Below, piece after piece: positions 2,065 through 57,575 of a stretch of DNA of 64,000 nt. Where the stretch lies: NCBI RefSeq assembly GCF_030680935.1, contig NZ_JAUXUP010000015.1, positions 1,948-65,947 on the forward strand, written 5' to 3'. Under the pieces are notes generated by a model. That model had not been told where the DNA came from. It was given only the letters and a program-made list of their open reading frames with translations, and searched no databases. The stretch comes from Polaromonas sp. Its GTDB lineage: Bacteria; Pseudomonadota; Gammaproteobacteria; Burkholderiales; Burkholderiaceae_C. How positions within the stretch are numbered: position 1 is the first letter of the stretch; the number at the start of each line of letters is the position of its first letter. The translations under genes were made by a program, and so were the position numbers.

Positions 2065-3129
2065 TCAAGCCTGCACGTTCACGCCCACTTTGGCGCCGGC
2101 CACTACGATTTCCTGCCAGGTCTGGGGGTCCACCGCGATACCTTCCAGCTCGCGCTGTGCGCGGTACGCGCGCTCGGGGTCACCAGCGATCTGTACAGCC
2201 TCAAAACCCGGTGCAACCGGCCCAGCCCGGAGCCAGTCCACAAACGCCACCGCCTCCTGCTCAAAAACCGCTTGTGTGCCGAGTTGGGCCGGATCGATCA
2301 GGATGGTCAGCATGCCGTTGATGACGGCGCGCACTGCGGGGTCTGTGGGTTTGTGCCAGGTACCGCTGCCGGTCAGCGCGCCGCCCAGCAACTCGCAGGC
2401 CACGGCCATGCCGTAGCCCTTGTGTTCGCCGAAGGCCAGCAGCGCGCCAAACAGGCCATTGCTTTGCGGCACCACCACCACCCCCGGGTCGGTCGTGGGC
2501 CTGCCCTGCTCGTCTATCAGTGTGCCGGCTTCGACGCGGCGGCCCTCGTTGTGCGCCACCCGCATCTTGCCCTGCGCCACGCGGCTGGTGGCGAAGTCGA
2601 GGATGAAGGGCTCTCGTCCCTGGAGCGGCATACCAATGCAGCACGGGTTGGTGCCATACCGCCCATCAGCGCCCCCGAAGGGTGCGACCACGGGCCGCGA
2701 CAACACATTGACAAAATGCAGCGACACCAGGCCTTGCGCCACTGCCATCTCCGCGAAGTGCCCGATCCGGCCCAGGTGGTGCGCGTTGGCCAGCGTCATG
2801 ATGCAGCTGCCATGCGTTCTGGCGCGCGCCATGCCCAGCGCCATGGCTTGCTCGCCAACGACCTGGCCATAGCCGCGCTGACCGTCCAGGGTCAGCAGCG
2901 AGCCGGCGTCGAGAACGATCTTGACACTGTTGTTGGGCTTGAGGCCGCCTTCCAGCACCGCGTCCACATAACGCGGCAACATGCCGACACCGTGTGAATC
3001 GTGGCCGCTCAGATTGGCCATCACCAGGTTGGCGGCGACGGCATCTGCCTCTGCGGGCTGGCTGCCGGCCGCTATCAAAACAGTAGCTACTTGCGCACGT
3101 AGAACGGGGGCTTGAAGTGTATTTTGCAT
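2065..3129 (-). CDS. Ldh_2-family (malate/lactate/ureidoglycolate) dehydrogenase, YbiC/HcxB-like
   Basis: ANLSGHDSHGVGMLPRY, NAHHLGRIGHFAE, GTNPCCI, LDFATS, FGEHKGYG motifs. Confidence 0.9.
   Translation of the reverse strand: MQNTLQAPVLRAQVATVLIAAGSQPAEADAVAANLVMANLSGHDSHGVGMLPRYVDAVLEGGLKPNNSVKIVLDAGSLLTLDGQRGYGQVVGEQAMALGMARARTHGSCIMTLANAHHLGRIGHFAEMAVAQGLVSLHFVNVLSRPVVAPFGGADGRYGTNPCCIGMPLQGREPFILDFATSRVAQGKMRVAHNEGRRVEAGTLIDEQGRPTTDPGVVVVPQSNGLFGALLAFGEHKGYGMAVACELLGGALTGSGTWHKPTDPAVRAVINGMLTILIDPAQLGTQAVFEQEAVAFVDWLRAGPVAPGFEAVQIAGDPERAYRAQRELEGIAVDPQTWQEIVVAGAKVGVNVQA
3071..3111 (-). repeat. 41-bp spaced motif, copy 2 (in frame in the ldh2 N-terminus)
   Basis: GCTA-TCAAAACAGT-AGCT-ACTTG-CGC-ACGTAGAACGG-GGGC; encodes APVLRAQVATVLIA. 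Confidence 0.8.
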
Positions 3130-3135
3130 ATAAGC

Positions 3136-4662: not shown

Positions 4663-4714
4663 GGTTGGGTGTCCGTGAGTGTTTTAGTTAGGGAGAGTGT
4701 TCAGGTGGGTGGTG

Positions 4715-4817: not shown

Positions 4818-4868
4818 TGGCCATCGCTCCACGAGGGCGGCACCGAAAACCTGCTAGGCCTGTAGGAT

Positions 4869-4956: not shown

Positions 4957-4997
4957 AACCCCACCACGGCAAGCGCATTGGTTTCCCCCAACGCGTT

Positions 4998-6392: not shown

Positions 6393-6404
6393 GTTGACGT
6401 TTTG

Positions 6405-6992: not shown

Positions 6993-7991
6993 CTACTTGA
7001 TTCCGACCACGCGGTCCCAATCCTTTTTGTCCAGCTTCATGGATTCGAAGGTGATGGCTTTGAGTACGCGTTGCTGGAAGTCGGCGCGGTCCACGGTGAC
7101 GACATTGATGCCCTTTTTCTTGAACTCTTCCACCAGTTCGCCTTCGCGCTTGCGGATGTCATTGGTCGCGTTGACTGCAGCTTCCTGCGTCACGTCGGCC
7201 AGCAGCTTCTGCTCGGCGGGCGACAGCTTGCCCATCAGGCCGGGCGAGATCACGGTCAGCAAGGCGTCCGAGATATGGCCGGTCAGGATGATGTTCTTCT
7301 GCACCTCAAAAAACTTCTTGGCCTCAATCGTCGGCAGCGGGTTCTCCTGAGCGTCCACGGTGCCGTTCTGCAGTGCCAGGTAGACCTCTGCAAAGGCGAT
7401 CGGTGTCGGGTTGGCACCGCAGGCACGGGGCAGTGCGGTGTAGGCCGGCGAATCGGGCACGCGCATCTTGATGCCCTTCATCTCGTCGCAGTTCTTGAAC
7501 AGCTTGTTGCTGGTCGCGTGGCGCGCGCCGTAGTAGGTCAGGGCGGTCACCGTGTTGCCGGTGGCTTTTTTGTAGCCTTCGGTCAACTCCTTGAAGATGT
7601 CGCTCTTGCCGTAGGCGATCACATGGTCGGCATCGCGGAAGGTGAAGGGGTAATAGCTGACTGCCAGGCGCGGGAAGGAGTTGGAGGCAAACGACGCGCC
7701 GGTCAGGATGATGTCCACTGTGCCCAGTTGCAGGCCCTGGTTGATGTCGCTTTCCTTGCCGAGGCTGGAAGCGGGAAAGACCTGGATCTCATACTTGCCG
7801 TTGGTGCGTTTCTTGAATTCGTCGGCGGCCCAGACCGACCACTTGTGGTAAGGCTCCGATGTCTCATAGACGTGTGCCCATTTCAGTTTTGTCTGCGCAT
7901 TTGCAATACCGAAAGGGGCTGTAGCCCCTGTCAGTATTGCGCAAGCAGCTATTACTTTAAGAGCAAATTGTTTTCTTGTCAGCGCTTTCAT
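6993..7991 (-). CDS. dctP: TRAP transporter substrate-binding protein
   Basis: Signal peptide; KGIKMRVP (conserved Arg for carboxylate binding), EVYLALQNGTVDAQENP. Confidence 0.93.
   Translation of the reverse strand: MKALTRKQFALKVIAACAILTGATAPFGIANAQTKLKWAHVYETSEPYHKWSVWAADEFKKRTNGKYEIQVFPASSLGKESDINQGLQLGTVDIILTGASFASNSFPRLAVSYYPFTFRDADHVIAYGKSDIFKELTEGYKKATGNTVTALTYYGARHATSNKLFKNCDEMKGIKMRVPDSPAYTALPRACGANPTPIAFAEVYLALQNGTVDAQENPLPTIEAKKFFEVQKNIILTGHISDALLTVISPGLMGKLSPAEQKLLADVTQEAAVNATNDIRKREGELVEEFKKKGINVVTVDRADFQQRVLKAITFESMKLDKKDWDRVVGIK
7924..7964 (+). repeat. 41-bp spaced motif, copy 3 (antisense, within the dctP signal peptide)
   Basis: GCCC-CTGTCAGTATT-GCG-CAAGC-AGCT-ATTACTTTAA-GAGC; the gene strand encodes ALKVIAACAILTG. 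Confidence 0.75.
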
Positions 7992-8069: not shown

Positions 8070-8828
8070 TTATGGGGCGTTCACCAGGCTGGCGAAGGGC
8101 TCCTTGAGTTGCCGCGCCTGGCGCCAGCTGACGCTGAAGCGGGTGTGCGAGTTGTCCATGTGGGCATGCATGGCCAGGCGGGCGGCCGCGCCGTCGTGGT
8201 CGCGCACCGCCTGCAGGATGGCTTCATGTTCACTGATGGCGGCGGACCAGGACTCCAGGTTTTCAAAGTAGCCGCCCAGCCGCTCGAATAGCGGACCGCG
8301 CCGCGAGTCCCAGAAACGTTGCACGGTTTCGATCAGCACCACGTTGTCGCAAGACTCGACAATGGCGGTATGGAAGGCGCGGTCGCCTTCGAGAGGCAGC
8401 ACGCCGCGGCCGGCGTCGCTTTTCATCATGTCCAGCGCCTTGACCATCGCGCTGATGTGTTTGCGTTTGGCCTGCAGCGCCGCGATCGAGGCGATCTCGC
8501 CCTCGACCACGCGGCGCGCGCGTATCAGCTCCAGTGGCCCCCATTCGTCGGGGGCGATCTGCGGCCGGCTGGCGGCGGCTGCGGCGCTGTGGCTGCTGCG
8601 GTCCAGCACATACACACCCGATCCGGTTCGCACCTCCACCCAGCCCTCGACTTCCATGGCGATCAGGGCTTCCCGCACCGAAGGCCGGCTGACACCGAGC
8701 TGCTTGGCCAGGTCGCGCTCCGCCGGCAGGCGGGTGCCCGCCGCAAACTCCCCCTGGCTGATCAGCGTGCGCAATTGCTCTGCAATCTGGCGGTACAGTC
8801 GCCTGGGTTCAACGGTTTGCAGCGGCAT
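8070..8828 (-). CDS. GntR/FadR-family transcriptional regulator
   Basis: wHTH RLPAERDLAKQLGVSRPSVREALIAME...GSGVYV plus FCD domain (DRAFHTAI...EHEAI). Confidence 0.95.
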   Translation of the reverse strand: MPLQTVEPRRLYRQIAEQLRTLISQGEFAAGTRLPAERDLAKQLGVSRPSVREALIAMEVEGWVEVRTGSGVYVLDRSSHSAAAAASRPQIAPDEWGPLELIRARRVVEGEIASIAALQAKRKHISAMVKALDMMKSDAGRGVLPLEGDRAFHTAIVESCDNVVLIETVQRFWDSRRGPLFERLGGYFENLESWSAAISEHEAILQAVRDHDGAAARLAMHAHMDNSHTRFSVSWRQARQLKEPFASLVNAP

Positions 8829-10086: not shown

Positions 10087-10830
10087 ATGAGACTTCAAGG
10101 AAAAACCGCATTGATCACCGCGGCCGGGCAGGGCATAGGCAAAGCCAGCGCACTGGCCATGGCGGCAGAAGGCGCCCAGGTCTGGGCGACCGACGTCAAT
10201 GCGAAGCTGCTGGACGGTTATGCGGGCGTGCCCAATATCCATGCGGTGAAGCTGGACGTGCTCGACAAGGCAGCGATACAGCAGCTGATAGCCGGCATGC
10301 CGGCGCTCGACATCCTGTTCAATTGCGCGGGCTTTGTGCATGCCGGTACCGCCTTGCAGGCCACCGACGAAGAGTGGGAGTTCGCTTTCAACCTGAATGT
10401 ACGTTCGCAGTTTTGGACCATCCAGGCGGCCCTTCCGCGCATGCTGGCCAACAACGGTGGCAAGGGCGGCGGCAGCATCATCAACATGGCCAGCGTGGTC
10501 AGCATCAAAGGGTTGCCCAACCGCTTTGTCTACGGCGCGTCCAAGGCGGCGGTGATAGGGCTGACAAAAAGTGTGGCGGCCGACTATGTGATGCAGGGTG
10601 TGCGTTGCAATTGCATCTGCCCCGGCACCGTCGATACACCTTCGCTGCAAGACCGCATCAATGTGTACGAGGACCCGGTAGAGGCGCGTAAAAATTTCAT
10701 CGCCCGCCAGCCCATGGGGCGGCTGGCCCAGGCGCATGAAATAGCGCCTGTGGTCACCTTTTTGGCCAGCGACGAGGCGGCTTTTGTCACCGGCCAGCAT
10801 TACAACGTGGACGGCGGCATGACCATATGA
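10087..10830 (+). CDS. SDR, BDH2/2-keto-3-deoxy-L-fuconate dehydrogenase-like
   Basis: TALITAAGQGIG, LFNCAGFVHAG, YGASKAAV, FIARQPMGRL; ATG 10087 follows an AAAGGA RBS. Confidence 0.85.
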   Translation: MRLQGKTALITAAGQGIGKASALAMAAEGAQVWATDVNAKLLDGYAGVPNIHAVKLDVLDKAAIQQLIAGMPALDILFNCAGFVHAGTALQATDEEWEFAFNLNVRSQFWTIQAALPRMLANNGGKGGGSIINMASVVSIKGLPNRFVYGASKAAVIGLTKSVAADYVMQGVRCNCICPGTVDTPSLQDRINVYEDPVEARKNFIARQPMGRLAQAHEIAPVVTFLASDEAAFVTGQHYNVDGGMTI

Positions 10831-11573
10831 ACCAGCTTGACTTCAAGGGCCGCCACGCGGTGGTCACCGGCGGTGCCACGGGTCTGGGCTACGCGATTGC
10901 GCAACGCTTGCTGGCTTCCGGAGGCAGCGTCACCTTGTGGGACCGTGACGAAGGGGCTGCCAAAAAAGCGGCCACCGCACTGGGACCGAGGGCGTCGGCG
11001 GTGACGGTGGATGTGTCGCAGCATGCGTCGGTGCAGGCTGCCGTCAAGGCGACGCTGCTGATCGCGCCACGGGTGGATGCACTGATCAACAGCGCTGGCG
11101 TCACCGGCCCCAATGTCAAGCTCTGGGACTACCCGGTGGACGAATGGCGCCAGGTGATGGAGGTCAACCTCAACGGCCTGTTTTTATGCTGCCGAGAGTG
11201 GGCGCCGCATCTGCGTGCCAACAACTACGGCCGCATTGTCAACATCGCTTCGGTGGCTGGCAAGGACGGCAATCCAAATGCCAGCGCCTACAGCGCCAGC
11301 AAGGCGGCGGTAATAGCGTTGACCAAATCGCTGGGCAAAGAGCTGGCCGATACCGGCGTGCGTGTCAACTGCGTCACGCCGGCTGCCGTGAAGACCGCTA
11401 TTTTTGACCAGATGACGCCCGAGCACATTGCCTTCATGCTGTCGAAAATACCGATGGGGCGCTTCGGCACGCCCGAAGAAGTCGCCGCGATGGTCGGCTG
11501 GCTGTGTTCCGAAGAGTGCTCCTTCTCGACCGGCGCTGTATTTGATTTGTCAGGCGGCCGCTCCACTTATTGA
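10827..11573 (+). CDS. SDR oxidoreductase (2-keto-3-deoxy acid-sugar dehydrogenase-like)
   Basis: TGGATGLG, INSAG, NASAYSASK, VTPAAVKT, FDLSGGRSTY; ATGA overlap with the upstream gene. Confidence 0.85.
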   Translation: MNQLDFKGRHAVVTGGATGLGYAIAQRLLASGGSVTLWDRDEGAAKKAATALGPRASAVTVDVSQHASVQAAVKATLLIAPRVDALINSAGVTGPNVKLWDYPVDEWRQVMEVNLNGLFLCCREWAPHLRANNYGRIVNIASVAGKDGNPNASAYSASKAAVIALTKSLGKELADTGVRVNCVTPAAVKTAIFDQMTPEHIAFMLSKIPMGRFGTPEEVAAMVGWLCSEECSFSTGAVFDLSGGRSTY

Positions 11574-17596: not shown

Positions 17597-17637
17597 TTGC
17601 CGGATTTTCCCCAAATTTTGAGCCTTTTGGCATTGGA

Positions 17638-17678
17638 GCCCTTATGTACCGTGCGCTAGCCGCTATTGTTTTGGGAGC
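17638..17678 (+). repeat. 41-bp spaced motif, copy 4 (contains the DUF2147 start codon and signal peptide)
   Basis: GCCC-TTATGTACCGT-GCG-CTAGC-CGCT-ATTGTTTTGG-GAGC (2 anchor mismatches). Confidence 0.6.
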
Positions 17679-18078
17679 AAGTTGCATCTCCGGTTTTGCC
17701 CAGATGACTCCTGTTGGCGTTTGGCGCAACCTGGACGACAAGACCGGTGAGGCGAAAGCCGAGATACGCATTGTTGAAGCCGGTGGTGTGCTCAGCGGCA
17801 AGATCGATAAACGTATTGGCAAGGACATCAAGCCCGATGACAGCTGCGACCAGTGCAGCGACGACCGCAAGGACAAACCCATCCTCGGGCTTGAAATCAT
17901 TCGTGGCGCCAAAAAGGCCGAAGGCAAAGACGTGTGGGAAGGCGGCAAGATTCTGGACCCCGAAAACGGCCGCAATTACAGCCTGCGCATGACGCCCATC
18001 GATGCCGGAAAAAAGCTTGAAGTACGGGGCTCGTTCGGCCCCTTTGGGCGAACCCAGACCTGGGTCCGTATGAATTGA
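17644..18078 (+). CDS. DUF2147 domain secreted protein
   Basis: Signal peptide; PVGVWRNLDD, C..C, ILGLEII, WEGGKILDPENG..Y, GRTQTW.R. Confidence 0.85.
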   Translation: MYRALAAIVLGASCISGFAQMTPVGVWRNLDDKTGEAKAEIRIVEAGGVLSGKIDKRIGKDIKPDDSCDQCSDDRKDKPILGLEIIRGAKKAEGKDVWEGGKILDPENGRNYSLRMTPIDAGKKLEVRGSFGPFGRTQTWVRMN

Positions 18079-20661: not shown

Positions 20662-20775
20662 GCTACTGCGGAATCGCCATGCGTCGTTGCAGCCCAAGCC
20701 CAATCCTCACGTACCTGAAGTACGTGCCAAGTGTGCTCGGGCGCCCGCGCCTCGCCTGACGATCCCTCGCTACGC
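20662..20775 (+). repeat. ~114-bp structured repeat (MITE/REP-like), copy A
   Basis: GCTACTGCG...TCCTCACGTACCTGAAGTACG...CTCGCTACGC; similar copies at 22553, 54725, 54798. Confidence 0.8.
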
Positions 20776-22552: not shown

Positions 22553-22666
22553 GCTACTGCGCGGGCGATCTGCGGCGTTGGTCCGGTGCTCCCCATCCTC
22601 ACGTACCTGAAGTACGCTCCGGTGGGTCCGCGCCGTCCGCCTTGCATCTCATCCCGCTCGCTACGC
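22553..22666 (+). repeat. ~114-bp structured repeat, copy B
   Basis: GCTACTGCGCGGGCG...TCCTCACGTACCTGAAGTACGCTCCGG...CCCGCTCGCTACGC, immediately after the fadA stop. Confidence 0.8.
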
Positions 22667-23995: not shown

Positions 23996-24595
23996 ATGGA
24001 CAAAGCTGTAGATTTTTACTTCGACGTTGGCAGCCCGGCCGCTTACATAGCCTGGACCCAGATGCCCGATCTCTGCCGGGAAGCCGGCGGCAGCATCGTT
24101 TACAAACCCATGCTGCTGGGAGGCGTTTTTCACGCCACGGGCAACCATTCGCCAACCACGGTGCCGGCCAAGGGCAAATACATGCTGGACGATCTGGCGC
24201 GTTTCGCGCAGCGTTATGGTGTGCCTTTCGAACACAACCCCTATTTCCCGATCAACACGCTGACACTGATGCGCGCTGCCACCGGCCTGCAAATGCGCGA
24301 CCCCGCACGTTTTGTCCCGGCGGTGGATGCGATGTACCGCGCCATCTGGGTGGATCGCAAGGACATGAACGATCCGGCGGTGGTGGGTGCGGCGCTGCAA
24401 GCTGCCGGGTTCGATCCGCAGGCGCTGCTGGCCCTGGCGGCCGAACCCGAGGTCAAGGATCGGTTGAAAGCCGTGACGCAGGAGGCGGTGGAGCGTGGCG
24501 TGTTTGGCGCGCCCACCTTCTTCGTCCATGGGCAGATGCACTGGGGGCAGGACCGCCTCGATTTTGTCAAACAAGCACTGAAAGCAAACACATGA
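23996..24595 (+). CDS. 2-hydroxychromene-2-carboxylate isomerase / GST-kappa (DsbA-fold)
   Basis: VDFYFDVGSPAAY, FPINTL, RGVFGAPTFFV, WGQDRL; ATG 23996. Confidence 0.9.
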   Translation: MDKAVDFYFDVGSPAAYIAWTQMPDLCREAGGSIVYKPMLLGGVFHATGNHSPTTVPAKGKYMLDDLARFAQRYGVPFEHNPYFPINTLTLMRAATGLQMRDPARFVPAVDAMYRAIWVDRKDMNDPAVVGAALQAAGFDPQALLALAAEPEVKDRLKAVTQEAVERGVFGAPTFFVHGQMHWGQDRLDFVKQALKANT

Positions 24596-25359: not shown

Positions 25360-25377
25360 GCATCAAATAGAACTCTA

Positions 25378-25418
25378 GCCCTTATTTAACGGGCGTAGAC
25401 AGCTATCAATTCAGTAGC
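25378..25418 (+). repeat. 41-bp spaced motif, copy 5 (intergenic)
   Basis: GCCC-TTATTTAACGG-GCG-TAGAC-AGCT-ATCAATTCAG-TAGC; ~60 bp including the flank resembles the reverse complement of copy 1. Confidence 0.88.
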
Positions 25419-25431
25419 ATCAGGAGGTTGT

Positions 25432-26271
<840 letters not shown>

Positions 26272-26280
26272 CGGATACGA

Positions 26281-27480: not shown

Positions 27481-27525
27481 CACCGCCGGCGGGGTGGGGC
27501 CATCGTCAGCTGCCAGTGGCTTTTA

Positions 27526-27553
27526 TTTTTACAAAGCGGCTGCTTGCTAAAAA
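27526..27553. promoter_or_regulatory. 28-bp palindromic operator upstream of the AtuR-like TetR
   Basis: ...TTTTACAAAGCG-GC-TGCTTGCTAAAAA; near-identical to 44863-44890. Confidence 0.7.
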
Positions 27554-27580
27554 TACCCGGCTTTGTTATGGTTCTGCCTT

Positions 27581-29142: not shown

Positions 29143-30782
29143 CAGTTTTCCAGTCAGGGTTCAATTCACAGGGCGCGGTGGCCCTTCAGCGCCGCGAAGC
29201 CATGCTGGCGCGTATCGCGGCGCTGCGGGCGTTGGAAGACCGCGCAGCCCAGGCCTCGGCCAAATCGAAGCCGGTGTTCGACAAGCGCGGCCAGTTGTTG
29301 CCGCGCGAGCGCGTTGCCTTGCTGCTCGACCCGGGCACACCCTATTTGCCGATTTGCGCATTGGCCGGTTTCATGCAGGACAACAAGGACCCCGCGCTGT
29401 CAGTGCCCGGCGGGGGCGTCGTTGCGGGTATCGGATTTATCGAAGGCACGCGCTGCATGATCGTTGCCAGTGATTCCGGGATTGAGGCCGGTGCCATCCA
29501 GGCCATGGGGCTGGAGAAAATCCTGCGCGTGCAGGAGATCGCGTTACAGAACAAGTTGCCCTTTGTCCACCTGGTTGAAAGCGCTGGGGCCAACCTGATG
29601 CGTTACCGGGTTGAGGGTTTTGTCCACGGTGGCGCCCTGTTTCGCAACCTCGCGCGCCTGTCGGCTGCGGGCATTCCAGTCATCACCGTACAGCACGGTT
29701 CGGGCACGGCAGGCGGTGCCTACATGCCGGGCCTCAGTGATGTGGTCATCATGGTGCGCAATCGCTCGCGCGCTTTTCTGGCGGGCCCGCCGCTGCTGAT
29801 GGCGGCGACGGGCGAAGTGGCGACCGAGGAAGAGCTGGGTGGCGCCGAGATGCACACCAGCGTCTCGGGCCTGGGCGAGCAACTGGCTGAGGACGACCGG
29901 CAGGCGCTGGGCCTGGCGCGGCAGGTAGTTGGCCGCACATCATGGTCAATTCGGGCTTCAGCCCTTGCCGGACACGCGCAGTCAGCTATTGAATCCATAG
30001 CAAACGAGCCCTTGTATGCGGCGGAAGACTTGCTCGGCTTGATGGCCGCTGACTTGCGCCAGCCGGTGGACATGCAGGAGGTCATGGCCCGGCTGGTTGA
30101 TGGCTCGGATTTCCTGCCCTTCAAGGCCCTGTATGGCGCGGCAACGGTGTGTGTGCAGGCCAGCATGGGCGGCCATGCGGTGGGCATCATCAGCAACAAC
30201 GGCCCGATTGATGTGGCCGGTGCCAACAAGGCCACACACTTCATCCAGATGTTGTGCCAGCTGGGTCACCCCATCATCTATTTGCAGAACACCACGGGTT
30301 ACATGGTTGGCAAGGACAGCGAGCAGGGCGGCATGATCAAACACGGCTCCAAGATGATCCAGGCCGTCACCAACGCCACAGTGCCGCAAATCACCATCCA
30401 GTGCGGTGCCTCGTTTGGCGCGGGTAACTACGGCATGTGTGGCCGGGGTTACGCACCGCGCTTCCTGTTCAGCTGGCCCAGTGCCAAAACTGCTGTGATG
30501 GGCGGCGAGCAGGCGGCGCGCACCATGCAGATCGTGACCGAGGCGGCCATGCTGCGCAAAGGCATTGCGGTGGACGCGGCGCAATCGCAGGCGCAGTTTG
30601 ACAAGATCGTGTCGGTGTTCGAGGCGCAGGCCGACGCCTTCTACACCTCTGGACTGCTGCTGGATGATGGCGTGATTGACCCGCGCGACACCCGGGCCGT
30701 GCTGACGCAATGCCTGGCCATGTGCGCCGACGCAGCAACGCGGCAACTGCGGCCCATGCAGTTTGGCGTAGCCCGGATGTGA
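29139..30782 (+). CDS. atuC: Geranyl-CoA carboxylase beta (carboxyltransferase) subunit
   Basis: RERVALLLDPG, LVESAGANL, GAGNYGMCGR, PRDTR...MQFGVARM. Confidence 0.85.
   Translation: MTVFQSGFNSQGAVALQRREAMLARIAALRALEDRAAQASAKSKPVFDKRGQLLPRERVALLLDPGTPYLPICALAGFMQDNKDPALSVPGGGVVAGIGFIEGTRCMIVASDSGIEAGAIQAMGLEKILRVQEIALQNKLPFVHLVESAGANLMRYRVEGFVHGGALFRNLARLSAAGIPVITVQHGSGTAGGAYMPGLSDVVIMVRNRSRAFLAGPPLLMAATGEVATEEELGGAEMHTSVSGLGEQLAEDDRQALGLARQVVGRTSWSIRASALAGHAQSAIESIANEPLYAAEDLLGLMAADLRQPVDMQEVMARLVDGSDFLPFKALYGAATVCVQASMGGHAVGIISNNGPIDVAGANKATHFIQMLCQLGHPIIYLQNTTGYMVGKDSEQGGMIKHGSKMIQAVTNATVPQITIQCGASFGAGNYGMCGRGYAPRFLFSWPSAKTAVMGGEQAARTMQIVTEAAMLRKGIAVDAAQSQAQFDKIVSVFEAQADAFYTSGLLLDDGVIDPRDTRAVLTQCLAMCADAATRQLRPMQFGVARM
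29961..30001 (+). repeat. 41-bp spaced motif, copy 6 (in frame in the atuC inter-domain linker)
   Basis: GCCC-TTGCCGGACAC-GCG-CAGTC-AGCT-ATTGAATCCA-TAGC; encodes ALAGHAQSAIESIA. Confidence 0.8.
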
Positions 30783-31984: not shown

Positions 31985-32784
31985 TGACCCCAGCCATGGC
32001 CCCCAAGTTACAGATCACCCGTTCGGGTGAGGTCGAGCATTGGACGCTGCACGATCCCGCCACACGCAACGCGCTGACCGAAGAGCTTGTGGGCGCCTTG
32101 CAGCTGGCCTGCGAGCGCGTGAGCGCAGACGCCGCGCTGCGTTTTGTGGTGTTGCAGGGCAGTGACGGCGCCTTTTGTGCCGGCGGCAGCCTGGGCGGTT
32201 TTGCCGCCTCTATTGGCCAGGCGCTGCCGGCCGGGCAAACCGATCCGCTGATTGCGATGAATGCGGGCTTTGGCAGCTTGCTGAACAGCCTCAGCGCGCT
32301 GCCACAGATCTTGCTGGTGGCCGTGGACGGGCCAGCCATGGGTGGCGGCCTGGGCCTGGTGTGTTGCGGCGATTTTGTGCTGGCTTCTCCGGCTGCGGTG
32401 TTTGCCACGCCTGAAGTCACCCTGGGCGTGGTGCCCGCACAGATTGCACCCTTTGTGCACCGGCGGCTGGGTGACCGCCACGCGCGTCAGTTGCTGCTTT
32501 CTGGGCAAAAGCTGTCTGCAGAGCAAGCGCTGGGGCTGGGGCTGGTGGACGAAGTTGCAGCTGATTTGCAAGCCGCCGTGGCGCAACGTATCCAGCTGTT
32601 GCGCCGCGCAGCACCTGGCGCGGTGGCCCACACCAAGGCTTTGTTTTGTATGCTCAATCAGGCTGCAGCCCAGGACATACAAGCGCAAGCAGCTCTCAAA
32701 TTCGTAGCGAATTTGCGCAGCCCTGAAGCCGCTGAAGGCTTGGCAGCGTTTGCGCAAAAGCGCAAGCCCGGGTGGGCGGCATGA
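31984..32784 (+). CDS. atuE: Isohexenylglutaconyl-CoA hydratase-like crotonase
   Basis: FCAGGSL, GPAMGGGLGL, PEVTLGVVPAQIAPFV, AFAQKRKPGW; TGATG coupling to atuD. Confidence 0.8.
   Translation: MTPAMAPKLQITRSGEVEHWTLHDPATRNALTEELVGALQLACERVSADAALRFVVLQGSDGAFCAGGSLGGFAASIGQALPAGQTDPLIAMNAGFGSLLNSLSALPQILLVAVDGPAMGGGLGLVCCGDFVLASPAAVFATPEVTLGVVPAQIAPFVHRRLGDRHARQLLLSGQKLSAEQALGLGLVDEVAADLQAAVAQRIQLLRRAAPGAVAHTKALFCMLNQAAAQDIQAQAALKFVANLRSPEAAEGLAAFAQKRKPGWAA
32668..32708 (+). repeat. 41-bp spaced motif, copy 7 (in frame in the atuE C-terminal helix)
   Basis: GCCC-AGGACATACAA-GCG-CAAGC-AGCT-CTCAAATTCG-TAGC; encodes AQDIQAQAALKFVA. Confidence 0.8.
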
Positions 32785-36422: not shown

Positions 36423-37580
36423 CTATTTGAAGTACTCGGAGACGGGTTTCCATTTACCATCCGTGATTTGCGACAGGCGGGAAGCGTCGCTGCCCAGGCG
36501 TTTGGTGGCCGTATAAGTGGCTTGTGCGCTGCCAAACATGTCTGGCGGAACCACCATGGTGTCCATCACCTTGATGAAGCTGTCGGTCGACAGGTTAGGG
36601 CCCGCCTTCTGGGCTGCCTTGGCAAAGATGTCGATGATGTTGTAGCCATAAACCGAGAAGACGGTGGGGTCTTCATTGAACTTGGTTTTGTACTTGTTGG
36701 CCCAGAAACGGATGGGCTGTGAAGCCTCATCCAGATACGGGTTCTGCACCGTCATGGTGGCATACAGGCCGTTCATGGCCGGGCCACCGAGCTTGTGAAT
36801 CAGATCGGTGTAGGCCGCGCTGGAGCCCAGGAAGAGGGGGTTGAACCCGGTCTTGCGGGATTCGCCAATGGCGCCAATGGTCTCGCGGATGATGGTGCCG
36901 AGCACAACCATCTCGCAGCCCGAAGACTTCATCTTGGCGACCTGTGACGAGAAGTCGGTGGCACCGCGTTTGTATGAGGTCTTTTCAGCGAACTCCATGC
37001 CTATGGCTTTCAGGCCGGCCTCGCCGCCGCGCATGACTTCCAGTCCGAACTCGTCGTCCTGGTACATGGTGCAGACCTTCTTGATGTTCTTTTCCTTCAC
37101 CATTTTTGGCGTGGCATTGCGCATCTGGTCAAAGTAGGTGGCCGCGAAGGAATACTTCAGCTTGTGAAACGGTTCGTACATCTCGCGGGCTGCGGTGATC
37201 GGAAAGAAATTGATGACGTTTTTTTCAAACTGCACCGGCATGGCCGCCAGGTTCTGGGCGGTGCCGATGTGGCCGACCATCATGAAAATCTTGTCCTGGT
37301 TGACCAGCTTCTGCGCTGCCAGCACGGCCTTCTTCGGGTCGTAGGCCGAGTCTTCCACGATGATCTTCAGCTTGCGGCCATTGATGCCGCCTTGTTCATT
37401 GATCTCATCAACGCGCAGCAACATGCCCAGGCGGGCCTGCTTGCCAAAACCCGCGATGGGACCGGACAGGTCCTGGATGGAGCCCAGGGTGATTTCGGTT
37501 TTGCTCACGCCTTGCTGGGCCATGGAAATGCCGGAACTGAGTGCCAGGGTAGCCAGTGCCACGGTGGTTTTGAATTTCAT
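36423..37580 (-). CDS. Liv-type ABC transporter substrate-binding protein 1 (periplasmic binding protein type 1)
   Basis: Signal peptide; QDLSGP, GINGRK..IVEDSAYDPK, YKRGATDFSSQ. Confidence 0.9.
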   Translation of the reverse strand: MKFKTTVALATLALSSGISMAQQGVSKTEITLGSIQDLSGPIAGFGKQARLGMLLRVDEINEQGGINGRKLKIIVEDSAYDPKKAVLAAQKLVNQDKIFMMVGHIGTAQNLAAMPVQFEKNVINFFPITAAREMYEPFHKLKYSFAATYFDQMRNATPKMVKEKNIKKVCTMYQDDEFGLEVMRGGEAGLKAIGMEFAEKTSYKRGATDFSSQVAKMKSSGCEMVVLGTIIRETIGAIGESRKTGFNPLFLGSSAAYTDLIHKLGGPAMNGLYATMTVQNPYLDEASQPIRFWANKYKTKFNEDPTVFSVYGYNIIDIFAKAAQKAGPNLSTDSFIKVMDTMVVPPDMFGSAQATYTATKRLGSDASRLSQITDGKWKPVSEYFK

Positions 37581-37830: not shown

Positions 37831-39069
37831 TCACTGGTCTTTGAGGAATTCCGACTCGATTTTCCACTTGCCATCCTTCTGCATCACCGACTTGAGGCCG
37901 GCGAAGGCCACGTAGTCGGAGGTGACGGTCCAGCGGCCGTCCTTGATCTGCGACAGGCGCGTGTAGCGGTTGCCCAGGCGCTTGGTGGGTGAGAAGGTCA
38001 TCTCCGGTGTGCCAAACATGTCGCGGTTGTACGTGGTGCTGTCCATGGTCTTGATGAACGAATCGGTGGTGAACGCAGGTCCGGTGCGAAACGCCGTCTT
38101 GAGGAAGCTGTCAACCGCCGCATAGCCGTAGACCGACATGACCGAAGGTTCTTCGTTGAACTTGGTCTTGTATTTATTCGCCCAGAAGCGCACTGGCTGC
38201 TCGGCAGCGTCGAGGTAAGGGTGTTGCGCCGTCATGGTGGCGTACAGGTTGTCCATGAGTTTGCCGCCCAGCCTGGGGATGAGGTCGGTGTACACCGCGC
38301 TGGAGCCGACAAAGGCGGGGCTGAAACCGGTCTTGCGGGACTCGGCAATGGCTCCCACCGTCTCGCGGATGACGGTGCCCAGCACCACCAGGTCGCAGCC
38401 CGCCGCCTTCATTCTGGCTACCTGCGACGAGAAATCAGTCGCGCCGCGCTTGTAGCTGGTTTTTTCCGCCAGTTCCATGTTGATCGTCTTCAGGCCGGCT
38501 TCGCTGCCGCGCAATACTTCCAGCCCGAAGTCATCGTCCTGGTAGAGGATGCAGGGTTTCTTCAGGTTCAGGTCTTTCACCAGGCGCGGCGCGGCGATCC
38601 GCATCTGGTCGTAGTACGTGGCGGCACTGGAAAACTTCAGGCGGTGGAAGGGCTCATACATTTCACGCGCTGCGGTGATGGGCAGGAAATTGATGACGTT
38701 CTTCTCGAACTGCACGGGCATGGCCGCCATGTTCTGCGACGTGCCGAGGTGGCCGACCATGGCAAAGATGCCGTCCCCCTGCGTCACCAGCTTCTGCGCG
38801 CCCAGCACTGCACGCTTGGGGTCGTAGCCGGAGTCTTCAACCAGCAGCTTGAGCTTGCGGCCATGAACGCCGCCCAGTTCGTTGGCCTCGTCGACGCGCA
38901 TTTGCATGCCCATCCGGATCTGCTTGCCATAGGAGGCGAGTGGACCCGACAGGTCCTGGATGGTGCCGATCGCTATCTCGGTTTTGCTCACGCCGGGGGT
39001 GGCGGACTGGGCCCAGGCCGGGGCGCCGCCTGCAGCAAGGACGGCGGCGAGGATGAGTCTGATGTTCAT
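37831..39069 (-). CDS. Liv-type ABC substrate-binding protein 2 (paralog of SBP1)
   Basis: MNIRLILAAVLAAG signal peptide; shares MAAMPVQFEKNVINF.PITAAREMYEPFH and YKRGATDFSSQVA with SBP1. Confidence 0.9.
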   Translation of the reverse strand: MNIRLILAAVLAAGGAPAWAQSATPGVSKTEIAIGTIQDLSGPLASYGKQIRMGMQMRVDEANELGGVHGRKLKLLVEDSGYDPKRAVLGAQKLVTQGDGIFAMVGHLGTSQNMAAMPVQFEKNVINFLPITAAREMYEPFHRLKFSSAATYYDQMRIAAPRLVKDLNLKKPCILYQDDDFGLEVLRGSEAGLKTINMELAEKTSYKRGATDFSSQVARMKAAGCDLVVLGTVIRETVGAIAESRKTGFSPAFVGSSAVYTDLIPRLGGKLMDNLYATMTAQHPYLDAAEQPVRFWANKYKTKFNEEPSVMSVYGYAAVDSFLKTAFRTGPAFTTDSFIKTMDSTTYNRDMFGTPEMTFSPTKRLGNRYTRLSQIKDGRWTVTSDYVAFAGLKSVMQKDGKWKIESEFLKDQ

Positions 39070-39168
39070 GGGTTGTCTCCAGGATTTTGGGTAGGTGCAA
39101 ATGAATTCGCAACGAATTGTTTCCTGCGCGGGCCCTTGCTGCCTTGCACCTTGGCGACACAAAAAATG

Positions 39169-44845: not shown

Positions 44846-44862
44846 TTTTACTCCACAATAAA

Positions 44863-44890
44863 TTTTTACAAAGCAGGTGCTTGGTAAAAA
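44863..44890. promoter_or_regulatory. 28-bp palindromic operator in the livH/atuA divergent promoter
   Basis: TTTTTACAAAGCA-GG-TGCTTGGTAAAAA (13-bp arms, 1 mismatch); matches 27526-27553. Confidence 0.75.
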
Positions 44891-44971
44891 TAAACGAATT
44901 GCCGGAAGGCGGGCCGAGCCGCAACTTTTTTCCGCTTTGAATTTGACGGGGTTGATCATGAGCTGGATTCA

Positions 44972-47549: not shown

Positions 47550-47566
47550 TTGGAAGAAGGCCTCCA

Positions 47567-47607
47567 GCCCATACCAGACGAGCGTGATCAGCTATCAAAA
47601 GCAGAGC
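47567..47607 (+). repeat. 41-bp spaced motif, copy 8 (between convergent genes)
   Basis: GCCC-ATACCAGACGA-GCG-TGATC-AGCT-ATCAAAAGCA-GAGC. Confidence 0.75.
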
Positions 47608-47611
47608 GGAT

Positions 47612-48052: not shown

Positions 48053-48100
48053 AGGCACAATCGGTGATGGAAAATTAAAACAACAGGACAATTGTCTCCG

Positions 48101-49924
48101 ATGCGCTCCTATGCCCCCGCCGCCGAAGCACCGCCAGCCCCCGGCGCAACCCCCGCCCCCGACATAAACCGCTCCGACTGGGCCACGCTCCAGCGCCTGT
48201 TTCCCTACCTCTGGGACTACAAATGGCGCGTGCTGGCTGCCCTGAGCTTCATGGTCGGCGCCAAGGTTGCCAATGTCGGTGTGCCGCTGCTGCTGAAAAA
48301 CCTTGTCGATGCGATGAGCTTCAAACCAGGCGACGTGCAAATCGTGCTGGTGGTGCCGGCCGCCTTGCTGGTGGGGTACGGCCTGCTGCGCCTGTCCACC
48401 TCCTTGTTCACCGAGCTGCGCGAGCTGGTGTTTGCCAAGGCCACCGAAGGCGCGGCGCGCCGCATCTCGCTGGAGGTGTTCCGGCATCTGCATGCGCTGA
48501 GCCTGCGTTTTCACCTGGAGCGCCAGACCGGCGGCATGACGCGCGACATCGAACGCGGCACTCGCGGCGTGCACTCGCTGATTTCGTATTCGCTGTACAG
48601 CATCATCCCGACGTTGATCGAAGTCACGCTGGTGCTGACGCTGCTGGCGGTCAAGTTCGACGTCTGGTTTGCCGGCATCACCATCATTGCGCTGGTGTTC
48701 TACATCACCTTCACTGTCACGGTGACAGAGTGGCGCACCAAGTTCCGCAAGGAGATGAACGAGCTCGACTCCACGGCGCACAGCCGGGCCATCGACTCGC
48801 TACTGAATTACGAAACCGTCAAGTACTTCAACAACGAAGACTTTGAAGCGAAACGCTACGACGAGAACCTGCTGCGTTACCGCCGCGCTGCGGTCAAGAG
48901 CCAGACCACACTGAGCATGCTCAACACCGGCCAGCAACTGATCATTGCTGCCGGCCTGGTGGCCATGCTCTGGCGCGCCACGCAGGGCGTGGTGGACGGC
49001 CGCATGACACTGGGCGACCTGGTCATGGTCAATGCCTTCATGATCCAGCTCTACATTCCGCTGGGTTTTCTGGGCGTGTTGTACCGCGAGATCAAGCAAA
49101 GCCTGACCGACCTGTCCAAAATGTTCACCCTGATGGAAAAGGAGCGCGAAATCGCCGACCAGCCCGGCGCACAGCCCCTGAGTCTGCAGGCCTCGCCAGC
49201 GCTGCGGTTTGAAAATGTCAGCTTTGCCTACGAGCCGTCACGGCCCATCCTGCACAACATCAGCTTCGAGATTCCGCCCGGTAAAACCGTCGCGGTGGTG
49301 GGCTCGTCCGGAGCCGGCAAGTCCACGCTGGCGCGGCTGCTGTTCCGTTTCTACGACGTCCAGCAGGGTCGCATCACGGTGGCCGGCCAGGACATCAAGC
49401 AGGTGACCCAGGCCAGCGTGCGCCAGGCGATAGGCATCGTGCCGCAAGATACGGTGCTGTTCAACGACACGGTGGAATACAACATCGCCTACGGCCAGCC
49501 CGGCGCCAGCCGCGCCCAGGTGGAAGAAGCCGCGCGCGCTGCGCGCATCCATGACTTCATCAGTTCCACCCCTGCCGGCTACGGCACCATGGTCGGCGAG
49601 CGCGGGCTGAAACTGTCCGGCGGCGAAAAGCAGCGCGTGGCGATTGCACGCACCCTGCTGAAGAACCCGCCCATCATGATTTTTGACGAGGCGACCTCGG
49701 CGCTGGACTCTGCCAACGAACGCGCGATCCAGGCGGAACTTCGCAGCATTGCTGAGAACAAAACCACGCTGGTGATCGCGCACCGCCTGTCCACGGTGGT
49801 GGATGCCCATGAAATCCTGGTGATGGAAGCCGGCCAGATCATCGAGCGCGGCACCCACGCCGAGTTGCTGGCGTTGGGGCAGCGTTATGCGGCGATGTGG
49901 GCGTTGCAGCAAAGCGCCGAATAA
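48101..49924 (+). CDS. Atm1-like ABCB exporter (permease plus ATPase)
   Basis: FHLERQTGG, IDSLLNYETVKYF, GSSGAGKST, LSGGEKQR, DEATSALD. Confidence 0.92.
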   Translation: MRSYAPAAEAPPAPGATPAPDINRSDWATLQRLFPYLWDYKWRVLAALSFMVGAKVANVGVPLLLKNLVDAMSFKPGDVQIVLVVPAALLVGYGLLRLSTSLFTELRELVFAKATEGAARRISLEVFRHLHALSLRFHLERQTGGMTRDIERGTRGVHSLISYSLYSIIPTLIEVTLVLTLLAVKFDVWFAGITIIALVFYITFTVTVTEWRTKFRKEMNELDSTAHSRAIDSLLNYETVKYFNNEDFEAKRYDENLLRYRRAAVKSQTTLSMLNTGQQLIIAAGLVAMLWRATQGVVDGRMTLGDLVMVNAFMIQLYIPLGFLGVLYREIKQSLTDLSKMFTLMEKEREIADQPGAQPLSLQASPALRFENVSFAYEPSRPILHNISFEIPPGKTVAVVGSSGAGKSTLARLLFRFYDVQQGRITVAGQDIKQVTQASVRQAIGIVPQDTVLFNDTVEYNIAYGQPGASRAQVEEAARAARIHDFISSTPAGYGTMVGERGLKLSGGEKQRVAIARTLLKNPPIMIFDEATSALDSANERAIQAELRSIAENKTTLVIAHRLSTVVDAHEILVMEAGQIIERGTHAELLALGQRYAAMWALQQSAE

Positions 49925-49947
49925 ATTGAGAATGTTTCAGCGCTCCA

Positions 49948-49988
49948 GCCCAATCAGAGTTTGCGCGAGCAGCTCCTTATTTGATAGC
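49948..49988 (+). repeat. 41-bp spaced motif, copy 9 (intergenic)
   Basis: GCCC-AATCAGAGTTT-GCG-CGAGC-AGCT-CCTTATTTGA-TAGC. Confidence 0.85.
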
Positions 49989-50067
49989 GGGTGGGGTACG
50001 TGCTGGCGGTTCCAGTCTGCGGGATTCCCATACACCGGCCATCGCCGTCTCCTCGCATAATTGCCCC

Positions 50068-53221: not shown

Positions 53222-53222
53222 C

Positions 53223-54709: not shown

Positions 54710-54724
54710 GCGCTGCCGCGCGGC

Positions 54725-54912
54725 GCTACTGCGCGGGCGTATCGCTGCGGTGCGGGTCCCACAGGCCATCCCCACGTACCCAAAGTACTGAGCTGCCGCT
54801 ACTGCGCGGGCGCACTGCGTCGTTGCAGCCCAAGGAAAATCCTCACGACCCTTGAGGTCGCTCCGGTTTCCCTCGGGCGCCCGCGCCTCGCATTGCATCC
54901 CGCTCGCTACGC
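54725..54912 (+). repeat. ~114-bp structured repeat: truncated copy C (54725-54788) plus full copy D (54798-54912)
   Basis: Both begin GCTACTGCGCGGGCG; C ends at CCCCACGTACCCAAAGTAC; D ends CCCGCTCGCTACGC. Confidence 0.8.
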
Positions 54913-54967
54913 GCCGGGATCGGGGCGGATATAGGGATAGGGCCTTGAGATTTGGGACAATGGCGCC

Positions 54968-56008: not shown

Positions 56009-56784
56009 TGGAACGCAAACCGCGCGTCGCGCTGCTGATTGACGCCGACAATTCGCCGGCCTCCAAGATCGATTTGATCCTCAACGAGTTGTCCACCTTT
56101 GGCGAGACGAATATCCGCCGCGCCTACGGCAACTGGAAAAAAAGCGAGCTCAAGGGCTGGGAAGAAGCCCTGCATGAACACGCGATCCGCCCGATGCAGC
56201 AGTTTGACTACAGCAAGGGCAAAAACGCCAGCGACATGGCCATGGTGATTGACGCACTGGAGCTGCTGTATACCGACCGGCCCGATGCTTTTGGCATTGT
56301 GTCGTCCGACGCCGACTTCACCCCGCTGGTGATGCACCTGCGTGCCAAGGGTGCTGCGGTGTATGGTTTTGGCGCGCAGAAAACCCCCGAGCCTTTTGTC
56401 AACGCCTGCTCGCGCTTTTTGTACCTGGACAAGCTGCGGCCCATGGCGGCGGTGGACGCCCCGGCAGGCGCCCGCGAAGACGCCGAAGCGGTCGCCGCTG
56501 CGCCGCTGCGAGCAACGCCAGCGCAACTCAAGCAGGACGCCAAACTTGTCATGCTGCTGCGCAACGCGGTGCAGGCCGCTGCAGACGACGAGGGCTGGGC
56601 GCGCGTGGGTGCGGTGGGCACACAAATCGCCAACCAGGCCTCGTTTGACCATCGCAACTACGGCTATGCCACCCTGACCAAGTTGCTGGTGGCCACCCAG
56701 CTCTTTGAAATAGCAGACGAAGGCAAGTCCACCGTGATGGTGCGCGACAAAAGACAGGCCCGGCCCGCCGCCAGAAACGGATGA
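56008..56784 (+). CDS. NYN (LabA/DUF88, PIN-like) domain protein with C-terminal LOTUS/OST-HTH
   Basis: ALLIDADN, RAYGNW, GKNASDMAMVID, IVSSDADFTPL; C-terminal GWA..G.VG......FD.RNYGYA.L. Confidence 0.88.
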   Translation: MERKPRVALLIDADNSPASKIDLILNELSTFGETNIRRAYGNWKKSELKGWEEALHEHAIRPMQQFDYSKGKNASDMAMVIDALELLYTDRPDAFGIVSSDADFTPLVMHLRAKGAAVYGFGAQKTPEPFVNACSRFLYLDKLRPMAAVDAPAGAREDAEAVAAAPLRATPAQLKQDAKLVMLLRNAVQAAADDEGWARVGAVGTQIANQASFDHRNYGYATLTKLLVATQLFEIADEGKSTVMVRDKRQARPAARNG

Positions 56785-57575
56785 ACGCTGGCGCGCCGTT
56801 TTCTGCGCTACCTATCGCCTGGAGCCAGCCCTGGTTGGAGCCCTGGCGTGAAACCGGCCAATGCGTGGCACAAAACATCGCAGGCGGTGCCCCGATTCAT
56901 GATGCGCTGAACCAGCAGCAGGCTGGCGTCCCGCGCTTTGTGCCACAAAGCGCCTTGCCGCCGGGGCACGCCTATGAACAGTTCATTTCCGAAACAGGTG
57001 CTGTCCCTACCCGCAACAACCTGCACGACTTTTTCAACGGCCTGTGCTGGCTGCGCTTTCCTGAAACCAAGAAAAAACTCAACCAGCTGCAAGCATCAGA
57101 AATTGCCAGTGCGGGTGTTACCCCTCTGCGCGGGCCGGTGCGCGATGCGCTGACGGTGTTTGACGAAAATGCGGCTTTCCTGCAGGCGCCGCAACCGCTT
57201 TGGGATGCCCTGCTGGCGCGCGACTGGCTGCGCTTGTTTGTGGACCTGCGGCCGCTGTGGCAGCAGGCGCAGCTGGTGCTCTTTGGCCACGCGTTGCTGG
57301 AGAAGCTGCTTGATCCACGAAAAACGATCACAGCCCATGTGTACCGAGCGCAACCAGCTATGAATTCGATAGCGAAACTGGACGCCTGGGTGGCGCAAGA
57401 CTTAAGCGCTGGCAAGCTGGCCGGCAAGCCATTTACCCCTTTGCCCGTGTTGGGTGTTCCGGGCTGGTGCGCCGAAAACGAGAACTTTTCCTTTTATGAT
57501 GATTCCTCTGTTTTCAGGCCGCGCAGCGCAGGAGCCCGCAGAAAAACCCGTGTAGTGGGCTGTGGTGAGACTTGA
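56781..57575 (+). CDS. DUF3025 domain protein
   Basis: FVPQ..LP.G..YE..I, PTR.NLHDFFN, RDALTVFDEN, FGHALLEKL, PLPVLGVPGW. Confidence 0.85.
   Translation: MNAGAPFSALPIAWSQPWLEPWRETGQCVAQNIAGGAPIHDALNQQQAGVPRFVPQSALPPGHAYEQFISETGAVPTRNNLHDFFNGLCWLRFPETKKKLNQLQASEIASAGVTPLRGPVRDALTVFDENAAFLQAPQPLWDALLARDWLRLFVDLRPLWQQAQLVLFGHALLEKLLDPRKTITAHVYRAQPAMNSIAKLDAWVAQDLSAGKLAGKPFTPLPVLGVPGWCAENENFSFYDDSSVFRPRSAGARRKTRVVGCGET
57333..57373 (+). repeat. 41-bp spaced motif, copy 10 (in frame in DUF3025)
   Basis: GCCC-ATGTGTACCGA-GCG-CAACC-AGCT-ATGAATTCGA-TAGC; encodes AHVYRAQPAMNSIA. Confidence 0.8.

Follow-up and report, generated by a model that had tools for sequence, protein, structure and literature searches.

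The window analysed here, a 64-kb stretch of Polaromonas sp. DNA (61.4% GC), raises the question of why one DNA motif recurs within unrelated genes, where it encodes the peptide pattern A-x4-A-Q-x-A-x3-[IV]-A. An earlier note on this DNA had placed such peptides in the Ldh_2, AtuC, AtuE and DUF3025 proteins. All four peptides are present at the claimed positions and in the claimed frame, and Pfam confirms the four families. However, the count was too low, as a further sense copy in a DUF2147 gene and two antisense copies had been missed. The overprinted motif is thus confirmed and is larger than first noted. Alignment of the copies gave a ~57-nt multi-block consensus, AAW..GGCCTCYAGCCC-N11-GCGCAA-N-CAGCTAT-NN-ATT-NN-ATAGC, which contains ~45 bits of information in five conserved blocks with free spacers between them. 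The interpretation supported below, with somewhat better than even confidence, is that the motif is an old, lineage-specific and selectively maintained DNA recognition signal superimposed on coding sequence.

Matches to the core GCGCARNNAGCTN9RTAGC (two mismatches or fewer) number 11 in the window versus 0.54 expected. Scored with a 57-nt weight matrix, the window has exactly 12 copies, and its reversed sequence has none. Extended to the whole comparison set (the window plus 138 fetched loci, numbered with the prefix L), the matrix finds 82 copies, again with none in the reversed sequence. The density is about one copy per 5 kb in the window and about three copies per 21 kb in motif-bearing relatives; a total of hundreds to thousands of copies per genome is an extrapolation from the 12 copies per 64 kb. 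Two subtypes are present, the canonical AGCTAT form and an AGCTCC form (49936..49992 and 61495..61551). Seven of the 12 window copies lie inside genes (five sense and two antisense) and five are intergenic:

1981..2037, minus strand: intergenic copy that starts 28 nt past the Ldh_2 stop, in the orientation of Ldh_2 and flanked by convergent genes; matrix score 57-67; orthologous copy after the Ldh_2 stop in L135.
3067..3123 (core 3070-3111), minus strand: sense copy in the Ldh_2 gene 2065-3129, Ala frame; codons 7-20 read APVLRAQVATVLIA, in helix 1.
7912..7968 (core 7924-7964), plus strand: antisense copy in the signal peptide of the DctP-type solute-binding protein of a tripartite ATP-independent periplasmic (TRAP) transporter, gene 6993-7991 on the minus strand; read as ALKVIAACAILTGA; orthologous copies in L135 and L131.
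17626..17682 (core 17638-17678), plus strand: sense copy spanning the start and the signal peptide of the DUF2147 gene 17644-18078, Ala frame; MYRALAAIVLGA.
25366..25422, plus strand: intergenic copy that follows the stop of the crotonase-like gene 24592-25359 by 6 nt and extends as far as the ribosome-binding site of the gene behind it (ATG 25432); L003, L005 and L030 have orthologous copies.
29949..30005 (core 29961-30002), plus strand: sense copy in the interdomain linker (aa 275-288) of the AtuC-like carboxyltransferase 29139-30782, Ala frame; ALAGHAQSAIESIA.
32656..32712 (core 32668-32709), plus strand: sense copy in the C-terminal helix of the crotonase AtuE, with the open reading frame ending at 32784, Ala frame; AQDIQAQAALKFVA.
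47555..47611, plus strand: intergenic copy separated by 5 nt from the stop codon before it, the flanking genes being convergent; L085 and L089 have orthologous copies.
49936..49992, plus strand: intergenic copy of the AGCTCC subtype, 11 nt after the stop of the ATP-binding cassette (ABC) transporter gene 48092-49924 and with a LysR gene downstream; an orthologous copy occurs in both L085 and L089.
57321..57377 (core 57333-57374), plus strand: sense copy in the DUF3025 gene 56781-57575, aa 185-198, Ala frame; AHVYRAQPAMNSIA.
60274..60330, plus strand: intergenic copy whose end lies 26 nt before the RNase P RNA gene (60356-60683).
61495..61551 (core 61507-61547), plus strand: antisense copy of the AGCTCC subtype in the metallo-beta-lactamase domain of the NUDIX-MBL gene 61046-62695 on the minus strand; read as SLSNQELLTLAGQG.

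Chance, or protein-level convergence in Ala-rich helices with the DNA similarity as a by-product, is the simplest alternative to a signal. The encoded peptide does resemble a helix or a signal peptide, and GC-rich proteomes contain Ala more often than any other residue. The codons, as the earlier note had said, are those that the surrounding genes use rarely: in the window genes ATA accounts for 8% of Ile, GTA for 7.5% of Val, GCT for 9.6% of Ala, CAA for 24% of Gln and CCA for 9% of Pro. Synonymous codons were reshuffled with the protein held fixed, a check proposed with the earlier note, and none of 20,000 reshuffles reached the observed motif score at any of the seven coding copies. The Ldh_2 copy, for instance, scores 55, compared with a mean of 2.6, a standard deviation (s.d.) of 7.7 and a maximum of 32.7 for its reshuffles. 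The reading of chance in Ala-rich helices fails because no reshuffle matches any coding copy; the excess of core matches and the presence of the same DNA motif between genes and in antisense also stand against it, and its probability is considered negligible.

Structural features of the motif are unequally preserved between relatives. Orthologous regions were recovered for nine of the 12 window copies, and each of the nine recurs in the corresponding place in one relative or more; these nine regions revealed no copy that was recently gained or lost. The anchors, that is, the conserved bases of the blocks, were defined from the 12 window paralogues only and then scored on orthologues in other species. 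Comparisons of the orthologous copies showed that the anchors are 87% pairwise identical and match the consensus at 90%, whereas the spacers are 54% identical overall and 30-54% identical at four of the five intergenic sites. The copy at 25366..25422 has 85% identity in the anchors versus 37% in the spacers, the copy upstream of the RNase P RNA gene (kept in L086/L087, L089 and L091) retains its anchors with diverged spacers, and the anchors of the NUDIX-MBL copy are 96% identical among orthologues. The best-supported conclusion is that the motif is old enough for the spacers to have largely diverged between relatives.

Synonymous-site conservation of the anchors, a further check raised with the earlier note, was analysed in DUF3025 using nine orthologues with 73-85% protein identity and the codons of conserved residues. 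Invariant codons account for 6 of 10 within the motif versus 21 of 123 elsewhere, and invariant codons ending in A or T for 5 of 10 versus 6 of 123. The silent-site anchors GCC, CAA, CCA, GCT and ATA are invariant in all nine orthologues. Similarly, the rare codons GTA GCT ACT GTT TTR ATA of Ldh_2 are retained in four other genomes, including Rhodoferax. The antisense coding copies are at least as conserved as the sense ones, a point in favour of reading at the level of DNA rather than of mRNA.

Lineage differences showed a consistent pattern. The dialect AGCGC replaces AGCCC in Acidovorax and in L092, and the DUF3025 copy in L092, L094 and L097 follows this dialect through the synonymous change GCC to GCG. 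In contigs with the dialect (Acidovorax, L092) the DUF3025 copy has GCG CAC in place of GCC CAT. Polaromonas JS666 has no copy in 33 kb (L129 and L130; CP000316 4.15-4.17 Mb), where about six are expected. Its Ldh_2 site has drifted to the common codons GCC, CAG and AAA, and the anchors of its Ldh_2 and DctP sites are partly decayed. JS666 may have lost whatever maintains the motif. Both the dialect match and the decay in JS666 fit a genome-wide force.

The shared Ala frame of the coding copies, to which the earlier note had drawn attention, is real but largely explained by filtering. Further coding copies occur in relatives, in sense frame 0 of a TctE-like histidine kinase (Rhodoferax) and in antisense in AtuF (Acidovorax, and weaker in Ottowia and one unclassified Burkholderiales metagenome-assembled genome). 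The nine independent coding sites comprise six in sense frame 0, one in the antisense frame with Ala anchors and two in the second antisense frame. If the four open frames were used equally, six or more of nine sites would fall in one frame with a post hoc probability of ~0.01. The invariant ATAGC puts a TAG stop into sense frame +1. In the canonical subtype, TGA and TAG close one of the antisense frames, which only the AGCTCC-subtype copies, lacking those stops, use. The remaining open sense frame gives Ser/Tyr-rich peptides without a use in the genes described here and is the frame of Pfam DUF1010. With stop codons in one sense and one antisense frame, survivorship explains the common frame: helices and signal peptides can accommodate the peptides of those frames in which the GC anchors become GCN (Ala). 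A frame caller based on GC content at third codon positions (GC3) misassigned AtuE and DUF3025, and the frames were set instead from Pfam-supported genes and alignments.

The earlier note had further held that the motif was written into existing coding sequence by substitution rather than inserted, and had proposed comparing protein lengths with orthologues. The comparison upheld this for Ldh_2, AtuE and DUF3025 and did not for AtuC. No gap occurs across the motif between Ldh_2 and E. coli 2g8y; the spacers encode residues that still fit L..[VI]..V[LF]...G, the pattern of the family, and the motif peptide is conserved among 120 homologues. AtuE aligns without a gap to 4k3w and to P. aeruginosa AtuE 4zu2. 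Compared with Hydrogenophaga, Acidovorax and other sequences it has one additional codon upstream, with D-L and A-A-I-x-F in register, and the alignment suggests that D[DE]AAIAFA became AQAAIKFVA. In DUF3025 the first four motif codons, GCC CAT GTG TAC, encode the family-wide TAHV[WY], and the remainder belongs to a loop for which most representatives have 22-63 residues and the window protein has 38, the modal length. The Acidovorax AtuF copy aligns without any gap to several orthologues that lack the motif, and in DUF2147 the signal peptide has as many residues as in the Tibeticola orthologue (L034). The NUDIX-MBL copy shows no large gap against LACTB2 4ad9 and is four codons longer than the non-motif orthologue L101, with L-S-x-x-E-x-L-x-L in register. 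Orthologous sites without the motif score 2-4 s.d. above background with a matrix enriched in DUF3025 orthologues, which suggests that such sites may be pre-adapted to the motif.

Longer forms were found at two sites, both in variable linkers. The window AtuC-like protein is 89-91% identical to those of Polaromonas genomes, and its motif copy is common to the window, four Polaromonas loci and one Ottowia locus. In Polaromonas and Ottowia the AtuC linker is 7-8 aa longer than in the PDB structures of GCC/MCC beta subunits. In Hydrogenophaga and Ramlibacter (L012, L014, L021, L033 and L038; around locus positions 10800-10990) the same linker carries other in-frame insertions of 10-15 residues, ...LSRxRERG...PLPLAGEGxGEG..., which resemble translations of another GC-rich repeat. 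These other insertions mark the linker as an insertion hotspot. Among 120 homologues the histidine-kinase loop forms a length series of 36-60 residues in which short forms fall among the long ones, and the length difference at this site could equally well stem from a deletion as from an insertion. A clean 60-nt insertion in the Rhodoferax kinase, considered as a candidate, is weakened by this series.

Several observations weigh against a maintained signal written by substitution, and most of them agree with an ancient, non-palindromic miniature mobile element of ~57-60 nt that spread in an ancestral Comamonadaceae genome and was later co-opted. Such an element would have come to rest behind stop codons and, in frame, within loops that tolerate it; where lengths are unchanged, adjacent codons would since have been trimmed or replaced. 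Motif-bearing Polaromonas and Ottowia exceed most orthologues by 9-11 aa in the AtuC linker, whose length varies widely and which tolerates the repeat-encoded insertions of Hydrogenophaga. The Rhodoferax histidine-kinase allele has a loop 20 aa (60 nt) longer than its Polaromonas orthologues, near element length. The copies are discrete: outside them partial sites are few and core-only sites all but missing, so a block origin fits better than gradual accumulation. The intergenic copies fill whole spacers by stop codons and adjoin gene-content differences, as small insertion elements do, and one copy has travelled in an integron cassette (described below). In addition, ten of the 12 window copies lie on the plus strand, and the GC skew is weakly positive; the matrix behind the pre-adaptation scores is the DUF3025-enriched one; and the putative function of the motif is read from its conservation. 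The two longer linkers, the scarce partial sites and the stop-hugging intergenic copies make a co-opted insertion element a serious rival, although an unlikely one. Differences of only 0-1 codon in Ldh_2, AtuE, AtuF and DUF2147, with ancestral residues in register, count against it, as do the ancient residues under the 5' block of the DUF3025 copy and the ambiguous series of kinase lengths. The consensus also lacks a hairpin and the terminal inverted repeats of miniature inverted-repeat transposable elements (its ends are AAW..GGCCTCYAGCCC and ATAGCRAAW). Moreover, ~100 kb of compared orthologous sequence revealed no presence/absence polymorphism marked by a clean gap of element length, nor did it offer an empty site in which to look for target-site duplications. 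The alignments at constrained sites support overprinting, and those in the variable linkers of AtuC and the histidine kinase are ambiguous. On this basis we infer that the copies arose by base substitution rather than by block replacement.

The placement of the intergenic copies, which begin 0-30 nt behind a stop codon or directly adjoin a neighbouring gene's ribosome-binding site or start codon, also bears on a possible role in RNA. A cis element acting on mRNA stability, processing or intercistronic translation coupling would account for this placement and for an excess of sense copies, nine of the independent sites being sense and four antisense relative to transcription, which is not decisive. 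However, RNAalifold analysis of 22 intergenic copies showed no conserved secondary structure or covariation (-0.16 kcal/mol, three invariant pairs), and a search of Rfam with gathering and relaxed thresholds gave no family at any motif copy. The readings as a structured RNA and as a hairpin of the repetitive extragenic palindromic (REP) type were dropped because RNAalifold found no structure. The conservation of the antisense genic copies and the position of the copy upstream of rnpB, outside the mature RNA, are further points against an RNA element, which is accordingly judged quite improbable. The rnpB gene itself matches Rfam RF00010 at 209.8 bits.

Some neighbouring features of the intergenic copies were recorded. 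The copy before rnpB is conserved in four Polaromonas relatives and overlaps the presumed -35 region. Consensus sites for IHF, sigma-54, sigma-70 -35/-10, FNR and Lrp, compared by eye, gave no consistent fit to the blocks. Directly 3' of the copy at 25366-25422 a gene-content difference starts in P. eurypsychrophila; two genes of window 25432-27480, by eye one short-chain dehydrogenase-like and one tetratricopeptide repeat (TPR)/methyltransferase-like, are absent from that genome (L005 ~8275-8330). DNA metagenomes contain the locus, and the contigs found in RNA runs were those of conserved rnpB from relatives alone. The DUF3025 protein occurs on just two short Logan contigs.

If the motif is a maintained DNA signal, it would be a double-stranded signal of ~57 bp with five blocks, free spacers and no hairpin, present about once per 5 kb in Polaromonas and several other Comamonadaceae. 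Its anchor bases would be kept by purifying selection or by a drive of biased fixation, and their reader would most likely be a sequence-specific protein or DNA-processing machinery. Between genes the copies would fill the short gap behind stop codons. Within genes they would lie on pre-existing coding sequence at permissive places such as N- and C-terminal helices, signal peptides, loops and linkers, having arrived mainly by base substitution at already similar sites. The anchors would then become Ala, Gln and Ile/Val codons and the free spacers would encode protein-specific residues, so that the motif would be tolerated wherever a protein accepts A-x4-A-Q-x-A-x3-[IV]-A or the antisense equivalents.

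One special case of such a signal is a DNA uptake signal, a competence substrate that would accumulate through uptake bias and recombination. Uptake signal sequences and DNA uptake sequences (USS/DUS) have published densities about five-fold above that of the motif. The two resemble each other in being abundant and dispersed with a family-wide consensus, lineage dialects and intergenic enrichment (5 of 12 copies outside genes here), and in lying in genes without indels, in favoured frames, at poorly conserved protein positions, and in keeping their places between species (Findlay & Redfield 2009, PMC2817400). In USS/DUS genomes 35-65% of the uptake sequences are in open reading frames (PMC2817400). 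The motif likewise has many dispersed copies in and between genes, at orthologous positions without insertion, with the AtuC and histidine-kinase linkers excepted or ambiguous. In contrast to the contiguous 9-12 bp specificity core of USS/DUS, its ~45 bits are spread over 57 bp in five blocks. The favoured frame of the motif uses rare rather than preferred codons, and no inverted motif pairs acting as terminators were found in the window. Searches of the literature on uptake sequences, interspersed repeats, REP sequences and their associated tyrosine transposases (RAYT), and natural transformation in Comamonadaceae found nothing on this motif and no report of uptake specificity in the family. 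The likeness to uptake sequences, on which the earlier note drew, is an analogy, and an uptake function in particular is judged a distinctly unlikely form of the signal.

Other known repeats share single properties with the motif. Rickettsia palindromic elements are palindromic insertions of 100-150 bp that add 30-50 residues. Like the motif, they are repeated DNA lying in frame in unrelated genes at tolerant surface positions; most motif copies, however, add nothing, the ancestral residues persist, and neither an element-length gap in orthologues nor a hairpin-forming palindrome was found. REPs are imperfect palindromes and extragenic. Together with REP doublets forming hairpins (REPINs) and bacterial interspersed mosaic elements (BIMEs), they resemble the motif in being short repeats of high copy number that persist vertically and lie directly 3' of genes within operons. 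The motif differs in having no conserved stem and in the location of 7 of its 12 copies in genes. The highly iterated palindrome HIP1 of cyanobacteria is an 8-bp palindrome of much higher density that occurs both within and outside coding sequence, and its spread is attributed to substitution rather than to transposition. The motif is similarly over-represented in both kinds of DNA, but is a long asymmetric composite. The repeat BRE has been reported in Polaromonas, Rhodoferax, Acidovorax and Delftia, usually between genes and sometimes in coding sequences (Hot et al. 2011, PMC3110155). It is GC-rich, ~90 bp long and tandemly arrayed, TTTTTTGGCCGCGGGCCGCCCAAGGCAAAAAAGCCCCC... (PMC3110155). Identity of the motif with BRE was ruled out, since the BRE sequences in the supplement of PMC3110155 contain no AGCTAT and share no block with it.

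The motif was found in loci of Polaromonas, Rhodoferax, Acidovorax and Ottowia. A blastn search of plasmids with the consensus gave near-full-length copies on plasmids of Diaphorobacter, Rhodoferax antarcticus, Delftia and other Comamonadaceae. The matching plasmid records number 1,750 and are mainly enterobacterial, most of them with a 38-nt match of 84% identity. One record, pCTX-M3, was inspected, and its match lies in the integron cassette gcuF/orfF between dfrA12 and aadA2, annotated as "DUF1010 domain-containing protein":

L139 2997-3053, equal to NC_004464.2 ~66709-66765: motif copy in gcuF/orfF, TTTTGGCCTCTAGCCCTTGCGTAGCAAGCGCAAGCAGCTATCG..., matrix score 45.

The 96-aa open reading frame of gcuF/orfF matches Pfam DUF1010 (PF06231) at 109.7 bits. 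Profile positions 8-22 (SPCVASASSYRFCSA; ...SSPCVASASSYRF...) correspond to the motif read in the other open sense frame. The best window translation against this profile is the DUF1010 frame of the DUF3025 copy, with 13 bits confined to profile positions 8-22, below the gathering score of 25 bits. Similarity between the cassette and the Comamonadaceae loci is limited to the ~60-nt motif, and the relationship of DUF1010 to the motif is one of DNA. The cassette, like the window copies, holds a bona fide motif; unlike them, it is read as protein in a frame that is not used in real genes. DUF1010-type open reading frames are probably translations of the repeat in a non-genic frame. In the literature DUF1010 was found as an annotation label only. 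A scan of viral contigs for the exact core gave three matches only and was uninformative.

The window contains further repeats and features beside the motif. An unrelated, GC-rich intergenic repeat of ~94 nt, GCTACTGCGCGGGCG...CGCCCGCGCCTCGC, occurs just after genes and has terminal inverted GC-rich arms. A 33-nt inverted pair with 85% complementarity, TTTATTTTTACAAAGCGGCTGCTTGCTAAAAAT, has its sequence conserved in L005 and L034 as well, where it precedes the atu-like cluster, and may be the operator of a regulator. Two adjacent minus-strand genes have 70-76% DNA identity over several hundred bases and resemble tandem paralogues. A sub-threshold match to the Leu operon leader (37 bits versus a gathering score of 50, E = 5e-4) lies immediately beyond the 3' end of gene 58595-60229, which is on the minus strand. 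Their positions are:

20662-20755 and 54798-54891: full copies of the ~94-nt repeat.
22553-22580 and 54725-54752: partial copies of the ~94-nt repeat.
27522-27554 and 44862-44894: the 33-nt inverted pair.
36423-37580 and 37831-39162, minus strand: the paralogue-like genes, similar between 36432-37511 and 37912-38994.
58525-58595, plus strand: the sub-threshold Leu operon leader match, RF00512.

What the finding means for the family depends on the nature of the motif. A bolder proposal, held tentatively and at a little under even confidence, is that the motif is an undescribed genome-wide signal of Comamonadaceae and a third kind of uptake-sequence-like or chromosome-reading signal, long and multi-block with a putative protein reader, which constrains silent sites and biases residues and which is also the true identity of DUF1010 and gcuF. 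If the motif is a maintained DNA signal, a free-living betaproteobacterium carries a long non-coding code layered on its protein-coding sequence. This DNA layer would shape the choice of codons, and even of residues, in enzymes, signal peptides and linkers, and clusters of rare codons in these genomes may reflect constraint on DNA rather than on translation. The 57-bp sequence as a probe, together with motif-rich and apparently motif-less lineages, would offer a handle on the reader, which might be an uptake receptor, a protein of the nucleoid or of recombination, or another factor. In practice the motif flags spurious gene calls, as DUF1010-type open reading frames are probably repeat translations, and Comamonadaceae may be the source of a gene cassette that is now common on clinical plasmids.

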